In this document: positions 1,299-43,885 of the stretch, in pieces
Layout: every line of letters begins with the position of its first letter
How positions within the stretch are numbered: the first letter of the stretch is position 1
Source: Candidatus Woesebacteria bacterium
Lineage (GTDB): Bacteria; Patescibacteriota; Microgenomatia; UBA1400; UBA1396
Direction: 5' to 3'
Assembly (NCBI GenBank): GCA_021208605.1
Contig: JAJOJK010000007.1
Span: 1 to 48,221, forward strand
DNA: 48,221 nucleotides
Program-made: the position numbers and the translations under genes
Notes under the pieces: generated by a model
Databases searched by the model: none
The model's input: the letters and a program-made list of their open reading frames with translations, nothing else
What the model was told of the DNA's origin: nothing

Positions 1299-1307
1299 GC
1301 TCTAGCT

Positions 1308-1331
1308 GTGGGTGGCCGAAAGGTCACCCAC
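1308..1331. other. Strong hairpin (10-bp stem, GAAA tetraloop) between convergent genes
   Basis: GTGGGTGGCC-GAAA-GGTCACCCAC. It is followed by TAAAAAACA on the + strand, so the T-run lies 5' of the stem on the - strand. It is therefore not a canonical intrinsic terminator on either strand. Confidence 0.35.
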
Positions 1332-1355
1332 TAAAAAACAACGTAACTATTATTA

Positions 1356-1670
1356 CTAATATAAATAAATTAGATATGTTCCAATAATACCGACGATAGA
1401 ATATACCAAACTATTTAACAGGTTTTTTATTTTTGAATCTCTTTTTTGTTTTTCTGAAAATATTTGAAGTGTCAGTATAGAAAAAAAACTAAGAAGAAAC
1501 CAAATAATAAATATAGTTAAGTTTCCCATAAGTGTGACTACAAGATAAGTAATACCACTAACATACATACCTAATAGTAGCGAATTATGGTTCGGTATAT
1601 TTTGTATTAGTGATATCAGCAGAAACCAAAAAATGTTTATTGTTACGCTTATTATAACTTTTTTTCTCAT
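1356..1670 (-). CDS. Small multi-pass membrane protein, unknown function
   Basis: The ORF is very AT-rich, with 3-4 hydrophobic stretches. I prefer the ATG at 1670 (MRKKVII...) over the GTG at 1685. Confidence 0.45.
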   Translation of the reverse strand: MRKKVIISVTINIFWFLLISLIQNIPNHNSLLLGMYVSGITYLVVTLMGNLTIFIIWFLLSFFSILTLQIFSEKQKRDSKIKNLLNSLVYSIVGIIGTYLIYLY

Positions 1671-1874
1671 AATATTTATGGTCACATTATACTATTATGT
1701 CTTTAAAAAATCGAAGTCAATAAACCCCTCCACGAAAAAGAGACAACGCCATACACAACTGGATGAAAAATAATAAGTACAAGTAAAAAACCGAGTCCGT
1801 AAAAAAACTTTGTGTTTTTTTTCACCTATGCAAAGAGACTAATACATCTCTCACATAGTATACAATGCAGCAAT

Positions 1875-2330
1875 ATGAAATTACCTGTTTTTGTAAAGGT
1901 CTTTTTCTTTTTTGTTGTGTTCATGGTCATCATTCCTTTCATGCTTATCACGGGGATTACCGTCATTGGGCCATTCTTTTTTGCGACTGACTCCGTTCTC
2001 TCTATAGAATCTCTTTCATCATTCCGCTCTGTAGTCCGGAATATAATTGCCGGGCCAGTCTTTACGGTATTGCTGGCTGCATTGGCCGGTTTTTTGGGAG
2101 TGAGAAAGGATTTTTCAAACCAGACTCGATCGATACTTTTCGGCGTACTTCTCTTTTTTTTCTTCACTTTCCTCTTGCGAAGTGGCATAGCGTACTACGC
2201 ATATATTTCTTTCGGAGTTCCCTTTAGTTGGGACTTATTACTCATTGGCTGGGGAATGAAAACGCTTTTGACAATGCTGGGTTTGGCGGTAGGATTCTTT
2301 GTCGCTCGTAGCGTATATAATAAAGAGTGA
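1875..2330 (+). CDS. Multi-pass membrane protein, unknown function
   Basis: Hydrophobic ORF. The ATG at 1875 (MKLPVFVKVFFFF...) looks more plausible than the GTG at 1812. Confidence 0.5.
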   Translation: MKLPVFVKVFFFFVVFMVIIPFMLITGITVIGPFFFATDSVLSIESLSSFRSVVRNIIAGPVFTVLLAALAGFLGVRKDFSNQTRSILFGVLLFFFFTFLLRSGIAYYAYISFGVPFSWDLLLIGWGMKTLLTMLGLAVGFFVARSVYNKE

Positions 2331-2384
2331 TGACTGTGCGTTTAGTATCAATAGTTCGAATCTCTATTTAACTCAAAAAAACTC

Positions 2385-2723
2385 ATGAATAGCAAAAAAG
2401 ACGTACTGAAAACAATCATAATTTTTTTAGTAGCTCTAACTCTGAGAATTACTATTCTTGGCATCGTCTTCAGCTTTTTCTCTGCATTTGTAGATCAAAA
2501 TTATACGGCTCTCTCTTACGTGTTTGAGGATATAGCTTACTTTATTTTTTATGCCACATTCTTAATCCCACTGGTGGATGTGCCGCTCATTATTTTTATG
2601 ACTCGAAAAGAAGAAAAGACGCTTTCGCTTTGGTTGCAACGTGGAGCGATGTTGGTTGGTAATATTGTGTTGAGTCAGGCGTTTGTTGGGATATTTTTGT
2701 TGGGTGCAAATATGGTTGGGTAA
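2385..2723 (+). CDS. Small membrane protein, unknown function
   Basis: 112-aa ORF with an ATG start and three hydrophobic segments. It shares strand and AT-rich composition with the upstream gene. Confidence 0.5.
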   Translation: MNSKKDVLKTIIIFLVALTLRITILGIVFSFFSAFVDQNYTALSYVFEDIAYFIFYATFLIPLVDVPLIIFMTRKEEKTLSLWLQRGAMLVGNIVLSQAFVGIFLLGANMVG

Positions 2724-2920
2724 GAGAGATCTATAAGATACGATCGATTATATTTTTTATTTAAAACGACGCTTCTAAAATAACATTCTCCGGGTACTCT
2801 GGAGAGTTTTCCCCGAATGGCAACGACTCCAACATATCTAGATTGAAGTTTACAACTTTGACAAACCTTTGCATCACTGGTGTATTGTCACCAATGGCTT
2901 TGATTCGAATATGAGTTGCT

Positions 2921-3394
2921 TCAAAATTTTTCTATAATCCCTACAATTTCTTCCATGGTTACCAAAGCAACACCGGCAGGATTTAATGCTCTGTTATCCA
3001 CCATCAACGCATAGTTTTCTGCCGGGATGCTAATTTCTTCCCTATTGCCTCGTTGCGTTTTATCTGGGGTGACATATGGTTCTGGTACTACTTCTCCATC
3101 GATATACACCTGGGAATCCTGTATTCGGAGAGACTCATGTGGCAATCCAACTATTCTACTTACTGTGAGGTAATCTTCATGTGTGTATACAACAATTGTT
3201 CCCCGACTGAGGTGATCACTATTTTGCACATGCGTATACCGATAGTTTTGTAAGGAGCTTAGAGTTGGCTCCATGGCTGGGCCCTGAATAAGAATGCTAT
3301 TTTTGTAAAAGAAATGAGTTAAAAAAGAAAATGTAAACAGGATGCCTAGTGTAATAATTACGAAAAGAATAATCTTTCTGAGTTTACTTGTCAT
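2921..3394 (-). CDS. S26 signal peptidase I homologue with both catalytic dyad residues substituted
   Basis: An N-terminal TM segment is followed by the conserved SPase I boxes. These read GPAMEPTL (canonical G-x-S-M-x-P-T-L), SRGTIVVY, VSRIVGLPHE (canonical V-K-R-x-x-G-L-P-G-D) and MVDNRALNPAG (canonical GDNRxxSxDSR). Confidence 0.7.
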   Translation of the reverse strand: MTSKLRKIILFVIITLGILFTFSFLTHFFYKNSILIQGPAMEPTLSSLQNYRYTHVQNSDHLSRGTIVVYTHEDYLTVSRIVGLPHESLRIQDSQVYIDGEVVPEPYVTPDKTQRGNREEISIPAENYALMVDNRALNPAGVALVTMEEIVGIIEKF

Positions 3395-3453
3395 TGTCTA
3401 ATTGTACAGACTTCTATGATTTTTAGAATTATATTAGTGTACTAGTTTGCTAG

Positions 3454-3482
3454 TTTACACAAAAGAAGTCATAGTTTAAAAT
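3454..3482 (+). promoter_or_regulatory. Candidate sigma70-type promoter (TTTACA-17 nt-TAAAAT)
   Basis: The hexamers lie at 3454-3459 and 3477-3482 in the divergent intergenic region. Chance matches are likely in AT-rich DNA. Confidence 0.3.
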
Positions 3483-3495
3483 CGGTTCTTATCAA

Positions 3496-3546
3496 ATGCA
3501 AGTCCAATCAATTATCTATCACTGTTCTTGGTGGCAGCTCAGCTAA
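3496..3546 (+). promoter_or_regulatory. Candidate leader peptide ORF MQVQSIIYHCSWWQLS* with tandem Trp codons
   Basis: My own translation of the intergenic sequence gives atg caa gtc caa tca att atc tat cac tgt tct tgg tgg cag ctc agc taa. The TGG TGG pair at 3529-3534 lies three codons before the stop, as in E. coli trpL ([14 protein letters not shown]). I see no clear Shine-Dalgarno sequence. Confidence 0.4.
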
Positions 3547-3583
3547 ATAAAGCCGGAGCTGATTGGTTGTATATTCCCTACTC

Positions 3584-3607
3584 ATCTGTCTCCTGGCAGA
3601 TTTTTTT
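3584..3607 (+). terminator. Intrinsic-terminator-like hairpin plus T7 run, 12 nt upstream of the GNAT-like gene
   Basis: The stem ATCTGTC/GGCAGAT has 7 bp including one G-U, the loop is TCCT, and TTTTTTT (3601-3607) follows. No + strand gene ends nearby, so it looks like a leader or attenuator element. Confidence 0.5.
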
Positions 3608-3618
3608 GTAAAAAATAA

Positions 3619-4248
3619 ATGAAAGGAAATATGCAACAAACAGAAAAAATTACATTTGAAAGATACTATAGTGTTCAATCTGCTGAAGAGTTAGGAATAC
3701 TCGCACAGAGTATTGCGGAATGTGTTTCGAGTGCTTTTCAAGGTGGAGTAACAGAAAAAGACACCCGAGAGCATATAAGCGGTGACCTTATTATGGTAAA
3801 CAGAAATGCTGAAAGGGTGAACGCTTTTAGTGTCATAATTTTTGCATCACCAAATGAAATTTTTACGAGTAATTCTATCTCAAATCAGAAAGGTGCTTAT
3901 TTTGCGGCTGCAACAGTGCGGAAAGAATTGCAGGGTCTAGGACTTTATAAAGCAATGAATAACGAAAGAATACTGGAGGCTATGAATAGTCATGTGCCCC
4001 TAATTTTTACGCGTACTCAGAATCCACGTGTCCAAGCGGGGATAGAAGCTGTGTTGAGCGATTATGAGGCAAGTGGATATATAGCATCTTACTCAACAAA
4101 GAGAATGAAAGTTTCTGGTGCCTATGGTCAAATGCTTACAAAAGAAAAACCGTTTTCAGATTCAGTAACCTTTAGTGATCTTGATTTAGAAGCTGGAGAT
4201 GCTTACATTTTGCTTTTTCATATTAAATACCCAACTAGAAACAGATAA
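3619..4248 (+). CDS. GNAT-like N-acetyltransferase (tentative)
   Basis: VRKELQGLGLYKAM fits the GNAT acetyl-CoA motif R/Q-x-x-G-x-G/A. The start may instead be the ATG at 3631, which is preceded by AAAGGA. The stop lies 2 nt before the next start. Confidence 0.4.
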   Translation: MKGNMQQTEKITFERYYSVQSAEELGILAQSIAECVSSAFQGGVTEKDTREHISGDLIMVNRNAERVNAFSVIIFASPNEIFTSNSISNQKGAYFAAATVRKELQGLGLYKAMNNERILEAMNSHVPLIFTRTQNPRVQAGIEAVLSDYEASGYIASYSTKRMKVSGAYGQMLTKEKPFSDSVTFSDLDLEAGDAYILLFHIKYPTRNR

Positions 4249-4250
4249 TC

Positions 4251-4898
4251 ATGAATAGAAATATACAATTTGTTACTGCTCTCCATGGAAATGAATACAT
4301 GCCAACTCTGGCAATAGCCAGCCTTGGTCTTCCACAGACTATAGGGAATCCTAAGGCATTAGCCGTTGGAAAAAGGTTTATTGATGCAGATCTGAATGGT
4401 GTCTTTGGCACTCACGGTGAAGGGTATGAATATACACGCGCATCAGAGCTATTACAGTCTATCGAAACATCAACTCCAGTGATTGATTTTCATACATTTT
4501 CGGCTGAAAGTGATCCCTTTGCTATCTTTGTTGATGCTCATCAGTTCGAATTAGCGAAGAAGACTGGAATAAAAAAGTTAATTTATATGAAGAATAACTT
4601 TAAGAAAGGGAGAGCCCTCATAAATCATGTGACAGGGGTGTCTGTTGAGGTTGGAACGCATACAAGTCCTCAATCTTTTGAAGTAACGCAGCAAATTGTC
4701 AAGAATGTTCTTAATGAGAATAGTATGAATCATGATGTTGAAATATTTGAGGTTTATGACACGATAACTCAGCCAGGGGATTATGTTAATTTTCAAGAAT
4801 ATAACAATGAATTTTATCCTGTTCTGGCCGGTCCTAATCCATATAATTTTTATGGATTAAAGGCAAGACGAATCAGTAGTTACGACTTGCCTCAGTGA
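4251..4898 (+). CDS. Succinylglutamate desuccinylase/aspartoacylase (AstE/AspA, M14-like) family protein, short form
   Basis: The N-terminal ALHGNEYMPT (the H-x-x-E zinc motif of the family), IDADLNG (compare DLNR) and VIDFHT all fit. At 215 aa it is shorter than typical members. Confidence 0.55.
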   Translation: MNRNIQFVTALHGNEYMPTLAIASLGLPQTIGNPKALAVGKRFIDADLNGVFGTHGEGYEYTRASELLQSIETSTPVIDFHTFSAESDPFAIFVDAHQFELAKKTGIKKLIYMKNNFKKGRALINHVTGVSVEVGTHTSPQSFEVTQQIVKNVLNENSMNHDVEIFEVYDTITQPGDYVNFQEYNNEFYPVLAGPNPYNFYGLKARRISSYDLPQ

Positions 4899-4941
4899 GT
4901 AATAAATTTCTTAGTACTCCTTTACTGATATACTAGGCGCT

Positions 4942-5199
4942 ATGAGTGAAAAGCAATACTTAGCTGAATTCATTAAGCAATTGCGCTTATATGATGATGA
5001 ATCATCTTTGCGTTCATTTTTGGAAGCTATATTAACTCCTAAAGAGCTTGAAGAAATTCCAAAGCGATTACAAATCGTTAAAATGCTAAAACAAGGGATT
5101 CCACAACGAGAGATTTCAGAAAATTTAGGAGTTGGGATCGCCACGGTGACTCGTGGTTCAAAAGAAGTCAATAAAGGTAACTTTCAAGATATTGCATAA
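4942..5199 (+). CDS. YerC/YecD-type TrpR-like DNA-binding protein
   Basis: This 85-aa protein contains LTPKELEEIPKRLQIVKMLKQGIPQREISENLGVGIATVTRGS, which is typical of the Trp-repressor-related YerC/YecD family. Confidence 0.8.
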   Translation: MSEKQYLAEFIKQLRLYDDESSLRSFLEAILTPKELEEIPKRLQIVKMLKQGIPQREISENLGVGIATVTRGSKEVNKGNFQDIA

Positions 5200-5294
5200 A
5201 GAATCACTTGTCATGTTATATCTAGTTCTTTTTCTTTCTGATATCACCGTACTTACTCTTTTGTATGATGTGTTGGTGAAGTAGAATATTGAGG

Positions 5295-6406
5295 ATGTTT
5301 CAATATTTTGCAAATAAATGGAAACGTTTTCAGCCAACGCTGTGGACTATTCTATTCAGTTTCGATATATACCTACTTTTGCATATTTTTACATGGGGAG
5401 AAACTTCATCAATTCCAACAATTGATTTCTATTTAGCATTTATCGTTCCACTTTTTTGCCGATAGTGTTTTCGATAGGGTACGCTTGGATCACGGCTTCT
5501 CGCCGTTGGTGGGGTCAAATGGGAATGACTTTTCTATTCACCGTTTTGAGCGTTTCGTTTGTAAGCATTGTCTACACTGCTGTTATTTTCGATGCTTGTT
5601 TTCATCAGCTTCCGGCAGCACTTGGATGCGATTCTGATCCATTTCCACTGATGGGTCTACCAATGCTTTTTGGATTTATTGGTATTGTTTCTACAGTGTT
5701 TATATCACCAGTTATCTCACTGATAGTGCGTAGCGTTTATAAACTTGGTTCTTTGGCTTTTGTGCGAAATATTTTAGAAAAAATGAAAATTGCTACAAAG
5801 CACTGGCTCGTAGTTAAAGTGGCGGTGTTGGGTGCTTTTATTCTCTTGTTTGGAGCTTTCAGTTGGCATCGTGCACAATGGGAAACCCATTTTAGTGCGC
5901 GCACTAAAATTAGGCTATCCTACCCAGATCAAATGGGACTTTTATATTCTCATAGTTATTGGAATGTGAGTGATATCGGAGTTGATAATATTTGGTTTAC
6001 AGGAGCCAGCCAGATCACTTCAGGTTTGAAGGGCGCGTCTGTAAGTGTATATCCAATCGAAAAGATGAGTTTTAAAAACGGTGCGATTTTGCGAGTACTG
6101 TTCCCAAGTGTACATACAGAAGGCTCTGGTTTCGATAAAATGGAGTTAGCAGACATTCAGACTCTGAACATGATAGAAAAATTCCTGCAAGATAAGCCGT
6201 ATTTTCATGGTCAAAGAGAGCTCATCTGGAAAGGAAATACCGCTCATGAATTTCGCTATAGCTCAGATTCTTTCAATAATCTCGAATGCGCTCTTTTGTA
6301 TACCGAGCGTGAAAAAATGTATCTAATCCGTGCATGTTGGCCAGCCAACGATTCAAAAACCAAACGTCAAGTTGATGGGATTGTTAACTCTTTAGAGCTG
6401 CCGTAG
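5295..6406 (+). CDS. Membrane protein with soluble C-terminal domain; needs a -1 shift at a T6 run, otherwise 5519..6406
   Basis: A 56-codon hydrophobic ORF (5295-5465, ATG start, TAGAAT 7 nt upstream) overlaps the 5456..6406 frame at TTTTTT (5452-5457). The hydrophobic sequence continues across the junction. Confidence 0.45.
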
Positions 6407-43813: not shown

Positions 43814-43885
43814 TGAGTCTGACAGGGTTCGAACCTGTGGCCTCTTCGATGTCAACGAAGCGCTCTACCACTGAGCTACAGACTC
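43814..43885 (-). tRNA. tRNA-Val (anticodon GAC)
   Basis: The 72-nt cloverleaf folded by hand is GAGTCTG-TA-GCTC-AGTGGTA-GAGC-G-CTTCG-TTGACAT-CGAAG-AGGCC-ACAGG-TTCGAAC-CCTGT-CAGACTC-A. CCA is not encoded. Confidence 0.9.

Follow-up and report, generated by a model that had tools for sequence, protein, structure and literature searches.

A predicted tryptophan attenuator and TrpR operator in series before a GNAT/AstE-like/trpR operon of Patescibacteria

Why should an uncultured, ultra-small bacterium of the Patescibacteria, the candidate phyla radiation (CPR), place a short open reading frame (ORF) with two adjacent tryptophan (Trp) codons and an intrinsic terminator before three genes that include no enzyme of Trp biosynthesis? 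This question is raised by a 48,221-nt stretch of DNA (hereafter the window; contig JAJOJK010000007.1, GCA_021208605.1) from a Candidatus Woesebacteria bacterium, in which a 224-nt intergenic region precedes genes for a GNAT-fold protein (gene 1), an AstE/AspA-family protein (gene 2) and a TrpR-type repressor (gene 3). An initial annotation, made from the nucleotide sequence of the window alone, had listed a promoter, a 16-codon ORF, a 6-bp hairpin and a terminator in this region and read them as a trp-type attenuator. All four elements lie where it placed them (Table 1), and its reading is supported by our analysis, in which the leader Trp codons are kept in homologous loci and the terminator has an alternative fold. 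The presence of an operator-like palindrome, which that annotation had overlooked, additionally implies that the control would be dual. From comparative sequence analysis and RNA modelling we propose that the region very probably holds two Trp controls in series, which would turn on the GNAT/AstE-like/trpR operon when Trp is scarce.

The three genes occur in the same order in four other distinct lineages, in which the gene 1 product is 77% (L001), 75% (L005 = L013), 72% (L002 = L006) and 52% (L003 = L004) identical to that of the window. Upstream of all four is the same succession of the 14-nt sequence ACTAGTTTGCTAGT, a short ATG-initiated ORF, a hairpin with the stop codon in its loop, a GATTRGTTNTATATT stretch and a second hairpin with a T-run. 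In gene 1, these loci agree at only 30-51% of third-codon positions, which implies that neutral sites are near saturation. The operator, by comparison, is identical at 14/14 positions in every pair of loci, while identity is 55-97% from the tandem Trp codons (WW) to the hairpin, 72-92% in the terminator and ~40% in the flanking spacers.

An ATG-initiated leader ORF of 16-18 codons is present in all five alignable loci, with the predicted peptides MQVQSIIYHCSWWQLS (window), MRNKSTIYHYSWWQLS, MKPICTAITFCWWQLS, MKYMYTTHPSFWWQLC and MKIKRHQIDQFLCWRPAG (L003). The four closest loci, window included, share its length and a layout of WW, three further codons and the stop; the fifth, L003, has one TGG only, so that the pair of Trp codons is kept in 4/5 homologous loci and a single W in the remaining one. 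The N-termini of these peptides drift, whereas ORF length, frame, position of the Trp codons and the location of the stop codon in the loop of the first hairpin (1:2) are constant, as one would expect of a leader peptide that has no role beyond being translated. The UGGUGG itself has no conserved pairing partner in the individual folds or the consensus structure, and when the 224-nt intergenic region was shuffled, an ATG ORF of 8-30 codons with a tandem TGG arose in only 0.15% of cases. Scans for promoters and for terminators both recover the predicted sites. The -35 and -10 boxes with their 17-nt spacer have equivalents in L001, L005 and L002, and the corresponding promoter of L003 and of its sister locus L020 is TTGACA-17-TATATA. 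In the window, transcription is predicted to start near 3489, 6-7 nt 5' of the leader ATG. The distance from the -10 box to the leader ATG is 10-13 nt in four loci, which suggests that the leader message is probably near-leaderless.

Table 1. Predicted regulatory elements and genes of the operon in the window
Feature	Position	Strand	Basis or remark
TrpR operator-like palindrome GTACTAGTTTGCTAGTTT, core ACTAGTTTGCTAGT at 3441-3454	3439-3456		Overlaps the -35 box
Sigma-70-type promoter, TTTACA (3454-3459), 17-nt spacer, TAAAAT (3477-3482)	3454-3482	+	Promoter scan, 10/12
Leader peptide ORF, MQVQSIIYHCSWWQLS and stop	3496-3546	+	ATG 3496, TGG TGG 3529-3534, TAA 3544-3546
Segment A (leader ORF start), pairs with segment C (3561-3572) as outer helix	3496-3509	+	Minimum free energy (MFE) folds
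Hairpin 1:2, CAGCTC (3535-3540) / GAGCTG (3556-3561) with inner GCT/AGC helix	3535-3561	+	MFE and consensus structure
Antiterminator 5' strand GCCGGAGCTGATTGGT, includes 3' arm of hairpin 1:2	3552-3567	+	Constrained and consensus folds
Antiterminator 3' strand, overlaps terminator 5' arm and loop	3580-3597	+	Constrained and consensus folds
Intrinsic terminator, ATCTGTC (3584-3590)-tcct-GGCAGAT (3595-3601), T-run to 3607	3584-3607	+	-7.7 kcal/mol
Gene 1, divergent GNAT-fold acyltransferase (predicted), 205 aa, no Trp	3631-4248	+	AlphaFold2 pLDDT 90.7
Gene 2, AstE/AspA-family zinc amidohydrolase, short form, 215 aa, no Trp	4251-4898	+	PF24827, 1.9e-11
Gene 3, TrpR-type repressor, 85 aa, no Trp	4942-5199	+	PF01371, 1.2e-20

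The MFE fold of positions 3485-3625 (-30.7 kcal/mol, z = -1.9) holds both hairpins. The 5' arm of hairpin 1:2 begins directly after the Trp codons, and L003 keeps this hairpin as CCGCT/AGCGG. The position of the terminator is conserved in 5/5 loci in the consensus structure, with energies of -7.7 to -11.3 kcal/mol, or -4.9 in L003, where it is weak. The initial annotation had noticed that GGAGC could pair with the CTCC of the terminator arm but had found no convincing antiterminator by eye; the pairing stands, as part of a longer conserved antiterminator. In constrained folds (A)GGAGCU-GAUURG pairs with CYAAUC-UG-CCUCC(U); the former comprises the 3' arm of hairpin 1:2 and six bases beyond it, the latter the 5' arm of the terminator and three bases preceding it. 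RNAalifold run on the sub-alignment returns the same helix. On our alignment (A2) this pairing is kept in 94.9% of the cells, compared with 31-57% after shifting the 3' partner by 1-3 columns, and three of its pairs have changed on both sides in a compensatory manner.

We modelled a ribosome at the Trp codons by masking the RNA to 12-14 nt past the A-site Trp codon and a ribosome at the stop codon by covering GGAG, with the nascent RNA extended as far as the terminator loop. The antiterminator reaches -8.6 to -10.8 kcal/mol in four loci and -7.4 in L003 when the ribosome sits at Trp; for the same strands, a ribosome at the stop codon leaves -1.4 to -5.9 kcal/mol. The E. coli trpL region, run through the same script as a control, gave -15.6 against -2.4 kcal/mol for the antiterminator and -13.5 for the terminator. 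In these models, then, the antiterminator excludes the terminator and its formation depends on the position of the ribosome. Additionally, segment A differs in sequence from locus to locus, yet in all five it remains complementary to the conserved stretch just 3' of hairpin 1:2, with which it can form an outer helix in untranslated RNA. Compared with shuffled 5' segments, the duplex energies give p = 0.17, 0.003, 0.005, 0.015 and 0.105, which combine to ~3e-5 by Fisher's method. As GAUUGG can belong either to this helix or to the antiterminator, and as the helix conceals the leader start codon, we infer that it would act as an anti-antiterminator, enforcing termination when the leader is untranslated.

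The palindrome at the promoter, GTACTAGTTTGCTAGT, is invariant, and its core is identical in 5/5 loci while its flanks diverge. The core is the sole exact site in the 48-kb window, and a search of the window with <=3 mismatches returned no second site above chance. In E. coli, ACTAGTTAACTAGTAC lies between the -35 box and trpL in 5,422 genomes and has the same 8-bp spacing of its two CTAG elements as the window palindrome. This sequence is the established TrpR operator of E. coli (the Otwinowski et al. 1988 complex). In one E. coli genome (L026, NZ_CP148323.1, ~266-292) the trp operator appears to have an extra 8 bp, TAACTAGT, within it relative to K-12. L003 and L020 have the same palindrome just 3' of the promoter rather than on the -35 box.

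A candidate ligand-dependent repressor for this site is encoded in the operon. The initial annotation had placed gene 3 in the TrpR family, correctly, and had used it as a second link to Trp; its more specific YerC/YecD label does not hold, since the protein scores 34.3 bits with TIGR02531 (cutoff 42.2) and 63.4 bits with the TrpR model TIGR01321, just under the NCBIfam equivalog cutoff of 67.25. Its best matches in the PDB are E. coli TrpR structures, with YerC-like structures lower, and it conserves the LTPxE motif, the helix C Arg and the GIATVTRGS of the recognition helix. Together with the palindrome this suggests that the gene 3 product would repress its own operon.

Searching with the AstE-like protein, we reached more distant loci with leaders that cannot be aligned with that of the window. 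In L032/L033 the order is trpR, a leader encoding MNSKIQSTNKVSTLVVKHSSSWWTSRYRWCG, a GNAT homologue, the AstE-like gene and trpS, with the terminator CCCGCaccatGCGGG followed by T6; L034 has the same order with the leader MTINIIRTNNSTWWSPADSKRSW; and in L036 trpR and the leader MTGVSKAWWTGRYLWCG precede genes for 550-aa and 136-aa proteins, the AstE-like gene and trpS. In the latter two the terminator is a hairpin with a T-run, GC-rich as in L032. Each leader has three Trp codons, with the C-termini ..SSWWTSRYRWCG (L032), ..STWWSPADSKRSW (L034) and ..AWWTGRYLWCG (L036). With a ribosome on the first two Trp codons the nascent antiterminator comes to -12.2 to -19.1 kcal/mol and with one on the third Trp or the stop codon to ~0 kcal/mol, the terminators having -9.6 to -13.6 kcal/mol (for L032 and L034 the truncation points of the folds were set by hand). 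The recurrence of this design in unrelated sequence before homologous operons is, in our view, the strongest single argument that the window holds a real Trp attenuator. In these trpS-containing operons an operator-like palindrome with a single CTAG, ATCAGCGCACTAGTGCGCTGAT, is seen instead of the two-CTAG form (L036 ~862-883 and 450-470; L034 ~2330-2350; L032 ~1908-1925).

A related module appears to be linked to tyrosine. In L038 an operon of a GNAT-like gene (229 aa), an AstE-like gene and the gene for TyrRS is preceded at 2569-2762 by a full-length but sub-threshold match to the T-box model RF00230 (29.8 bits, gathering 93; E = 5.5e-5). This module thus seems to sense tRNA charging by a T-box-like leader and not by a leader peptide.

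Taken together, these elements suggest the following course of events. When Trp is plentiful, Trp-loaded TrpR would bind GTACTAGTTTGCTAGT over the -35 box and block initiation. Transcripts that escape this control would begin a few nucleotides before the 16-codon leader ORF. If charged tRNA-Trp is plentiful, the ribosome would reach the stop codon at 3544-3546 and cover GGAG, and the terminator at 3584-3607 would form. If it is scarce, the ribosome would stall on the TGG TGG at 3529-3534 and mask the 5' arm of hairpin 1:2, freeing GGAGCTGATTGG to pair with the emerging 5' arm of the terminator, so that RNA polymerase reads through. In the absence of translation the outer helix (ORF start with 3561-3572) and hairpin 1:2 would sequester the antiterminator strand, again leading to termination. 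The cargo is the weakest part of this scheme: its enzymes may serve Trp supply or salvage tied to TrpRS in Patescibacteria, one possible role being the release of L-Trp from N-acyl-Trp by the AstE-like amidohydrolase.

Several observations weigh against this two-layer reading and lend weight to one or another of its rivals. There is no clear Shine-Dalgarno sequence before any leader ORF, unlike before the structural genes (for the window ORF the initial annotation had rightly said so), and this includes L003, in which the 5' untranslated region would be ~37 nt. Such a pattern would suit a structured RNA that responds to a signal other than ribosome position, e.g. a protein or small ligand, with the short ORF incidental and untranslated, as would the peak of nucleotide conservation in the structured 3' half and the apparent use of a T-box-like RNA by the TyrRS-linked relative of the operon. 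However, the ATG, frame and stop-in-loop are kept in 5/5 loci despite the scrambled 5' sequence of the ORF; the conserved UGGUGG without a conserved partner would stay unexplained; and three non-homologous leaders again join three Trp codons to a terminator. Nor does the leader match a known RNA family: Rfam scans at the gathering thresholds and at E <= 10 returned only snoRNA and miRNA noise of 12-20 bits, with no match to Trp_leader (RF00513) even at E <= 10 and none to the T-box (RF00230), and the leader has a single (G/U)AG triplet, where a TRAP-type leader would have a run of them 2-3 nt apart. We accordingly consider a ligand- or protein-sensing RNA unlikely. Other observations would fit regulation by TrpR alone, with the hairpin and T-run being a constitutive partial terminator or a decaying relic. 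The terminator stem of the window has 7 bp, including one G-U, and is weak at -7.7 kcal/mol, and that of L003, with its single Trp codon, is poorer still; L020 has kept the promoter and operator and has no leader or terminator; and the operator is the most conserved element of all. Against this, in four lineages conservation between WW and the terminator far exceeds that of synonymous sites, the antiterminator carries compensatory changes and the outer helix has been re-created with a different sequence in each locus. TrpR as the sole regulator is hence distinctly unlikely, and the loss in L020 and weakening in L003 rather indicate that the attenuator is an optional second layer that can decay.

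The short peptide, its conserved Trp near the C-terminus and the closeness of the stop codon to an RNA structure are also reminiscent of a TnaC-like arrest peptide, which would sense free Trp in the exit tunnel and induce the operon when Trp is in excess. The TnaC spacing is W-x3-D-x7-P. The leader peptides lack this pattern and are unconserved outside WW, the terminator is intrinsic and not Rho-dependent, and induction by excess Trp would oppose TrpR at the same promoter and misfit a Trp-free cargo; we hold this explanation to be very improbable. That ORF, hairpins and T-run merely co-occur in an AT-rich spacer might be argued from the scans, since in this part of the window they return no more promoter-like and terminator-like matches than in shuffled sequence. 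Yet the rarity of WW ORFs in the shuffles and the retention of the element in four other lineages, with parallels in three more, speak otherwise; because the element is conserved, chance can be set aside as having next to no probability. A further set of reservations concerns the evidence for the proposed attenuator itself. There are five alignable leader sequences only, and all three compensatory pairs come from L003, that is, from one lineage. Neither a racemase nor a transporter, with which a salvage route would be complete, is present in the window operon. At equilibrium, with a 30-nt footprint masked, the window RNA prefers the outer helix and terminator (-17.3 kcal/mol) over the antiterminator fold (-14.0 kcal/mol). 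The genuine E. coli trpL likewise keeps its terminator at equilibrium with the ribosome at Trp, and for this reason the equilibrium fold of the window is not evidence against attenuation; rather, it implies that in both cases the switch needs co-transcriptional kinetics or steric exclusion.

Gene 1 had been labelled a GNAT in the initial annotation, and the label is borne out by the modelled fold, although the window protein falls below the Pfam thresholds and has no GNAT match there. By Foldseek, its top structural neighbours in the PDB, among them EctA, the tabtoxin resistance protein and AAC(2'), are all GNATs; Pfam Acetyltransf_1 is matched by remote relatives in its family; and a QGxGLY motif is conserved. 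On this modelled structure gene 1 encodes a GNAT-fold acyltransferase. Its start had been placed at 3619, 12 nt beyond the terminator. It is most likely the ATG at 3631, as the protein is called with 205 aa in every assembly carrying it (six), an AAAGGA ribosome-binding site precedes this ATG and all homologues begin with MQ..; the terminator therefore lies 23 nt, not 12, from the gene. The closest named relative of gene 1 is in a 'Candidatus Cerribacteria' metagenome-assembled genome. Gene 2 has the invariant residues H12, E15, H81 and E133, and its AlphaFold2 model (pLDDT 94.4) is nearest to succinylglutamate desuccinylase, aspartoacylase and aminoacylase 3, whose structure was determined with N-acetyl-L-tyrosine; a sequence search of the PDB gave no matches. 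It lacks the usual C-terminal domain, having 215 aa versus ~300.

The claim that no trp biosynthesis gene is present holds for the window, but not for related genomes, which pair the AstE-like gene with trpS or with trpC-trpB. The trpS gene adjoins the operon in L001, L002 and L003 and lies inside it in L032, L034 and L036; a partial gene beside gene 1 in L020 is, judged by eye, probably also trpS. In L030 (2843-3630 and 3724-5768) an intact AstE-like gene precedes trpC (indole-3-glycerol-phosphate synthase) and trpB (PALP). Gene 1 of this locus is reduced to a 51-aa ORF, the C-terminus of which, LEAGDAYILLFHIQY, is a remnant of the GNAT. The composition of the proteins points the same way: the three window proteins have 0 Trp in 505 aa, versus 1.34% in the long ORFs of the window (P = 0.001), and the seven related operons (L001-L005, L032, L034, L036) are Trp-free or almost Trp-free, with <=1 W in 855-1346 aa, including the TrpRS of L032, L034 and L036 and the 550-aa protein of L036. 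Such avoidance would be expected of proteins needed during a shortage of Trp-tRNA.

We tentatively suggest, as a possibility that is at present doubtful, that the GNAT/AstE-like pair is a Trp-salvage pathway of Patescibacteria, e.g. from N-acyl- or D-Trp to L-Trp, so far unrecognised, which was ancestrally co-transcribed with TrpRS and is switched on both by TrpR, sensing free Trp, and by the charging of tRNA-Trp, sensed by a leader attenuator (or by a T-box-like leader in the Tyr version). A comparable conversion of D- to L-amino acids (Sakai et al. 2006) is cited in PMC12006748. The likeness lies in the pairing of a GNAT with an N-acyl-amino-acid amidohydrolase, and in distant gene 1 homologues that precede MR_MLE and Asp/Glu racemase genes; in contrast to that route, the window operon lacks a racemase, which keeps salvage conjectural, and its deacylase is of the AstE/AspA family and not M20. 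The enzymes of that route are a GNAT succinyltransferase, an N-succinylamino-acid racemase and a desuccinylase.

The closest overall counterpart is the trp control region of E. coli, where an operator at the promoter is likewise followed by WW with three codons and a stop, the 1:2 hairpin, an antiterminator and a terminator. There is no sequence homology with trpL, so that the window element is an analogue and not a homologue, and it differs in several respects: its Trp codons lie just 5' of segment 1 and not inside it, it has an extra outer helix involving the leader start, and its leader is without a Shine-Dalgarno sequence. The cargo is a GNAT, an AstE-like enzyme and trpR itself in place of trpEDCBA, and the host is a member of the Patescibacteria. 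As to cargo, classical attenuators have been predicted before pheST in gamma-proteobacteria and before trpS and leuS in Streptomyces (PMC1262725), where, too, a leader peptide controls a non-biosynthetic gene of the same amino acid; those before Streptomyces trpS and gamma-proteobacterial pheST are the nearest precedents for a non-biosynthetic cargo. L032, L034 and L036 resemble them in carrying trpS inside the attenuated operon, whereas the window operon no longer contains trpS, what it places under control is two enzymes and a repressor, and the phylum is another.

Parallels of a more partial kind are found elsewhere. In Chlamydia trachomatis, which has a reduced genome and salvages Trp instead of making it, trpR likewise lies inside the operon it represses, trpRBA (PMC7755916); there, however, the attenuation-like control is exerted by the repressor YtgR and not by a leader peptide and terminator. 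Some TrpRS operons of CPR bacteria are also headed by trpR (PMC5370408). The T-box leaders of trpS and tyrS in Firmicutes similarly sense uncharged tRNA and let the terminator be read through, but the window leader has no T-box features, and its sensing would proceed via the ribosome. A search of the literature found no earlier description of this leader, operator or GNAT/AstE pair.

Thus, the proposed mechanism is classical, and the cargo and the phylum are new. To our knowledge, nearly all known cases of classical attenuation concern either operons for biosynthesis or one of a few synthetase genes, and come from Proteobacteria and Actinobacteria. The same attenuation logic with a TrpR operator would now be seen in bacteria of the CPR, where regulation is essentially unstudied; and if the pair does serve Trp salvage, ultra-small, biosynthetically poor symbionts would keep an enterobacterial-style dual control for an amino acid that they cannot make. 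The leader itself is a conserved RNA motif absent from Rfam. Further, the regulatory signature, made up of the Trp leader and TrpR site, the lack of Trp in the proteins and the linkage to trpS, trpC and trpB, would label these enzymes as 'needed when Trp runs out', so that the GNAT/amidohydrolase pair, which is widespread in Patescibacteria, can be tested for a role in how obligate symbionts scavenge amino acids.

More distant homologues of gene 1 (L007-L018) have no such leader and a different partner gene. In L007, L008, L010, L011, L014 and L015 the downstream gene encodes an enolase-superfamily MR_MLE protein of ~385 aa and not AstE or TrpR, with an Asp/Glu racemase nearby in L008 and L010 only; L010 has GTACTAGTATGATAGTAC upstream. 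One remote relative (P0148) is fused to a chorismate mutase (CM_2) domain, and in a Saccharibacteria contig (L012, 3595-3912) a separate CM_2 gene lies directly 5' of the gene 1 homologue. The upstream regions of trpS in L001 and L002 hold no Trp leader. They carry a different palindrome, TGTTGCC-N5-GGCAACA, which is also found before a divergent gene for a 340-aa hypothetical protein (L001 ~4425-4445 and 5630-5700; L002 ~4085-4105 and 5335-5400) and may be the site of another regulator.

As to its wider setting, the window is essentially contig JAJOIK010000005.1 of GCA_021209405.1. The operon lies within a low-GC stretch (0.37-0.38 versus ~0.50 in the remaining window), and this island, at 1300-6400, also holds small membrane-protein ORFs and a signal peptidase I. 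Because the neighbours of the operon differ between genomes, this suggests a mobile or variable cassette. A single tRNA gene at 43814-43885 on the minus strand is the sole Rfam match in the window.

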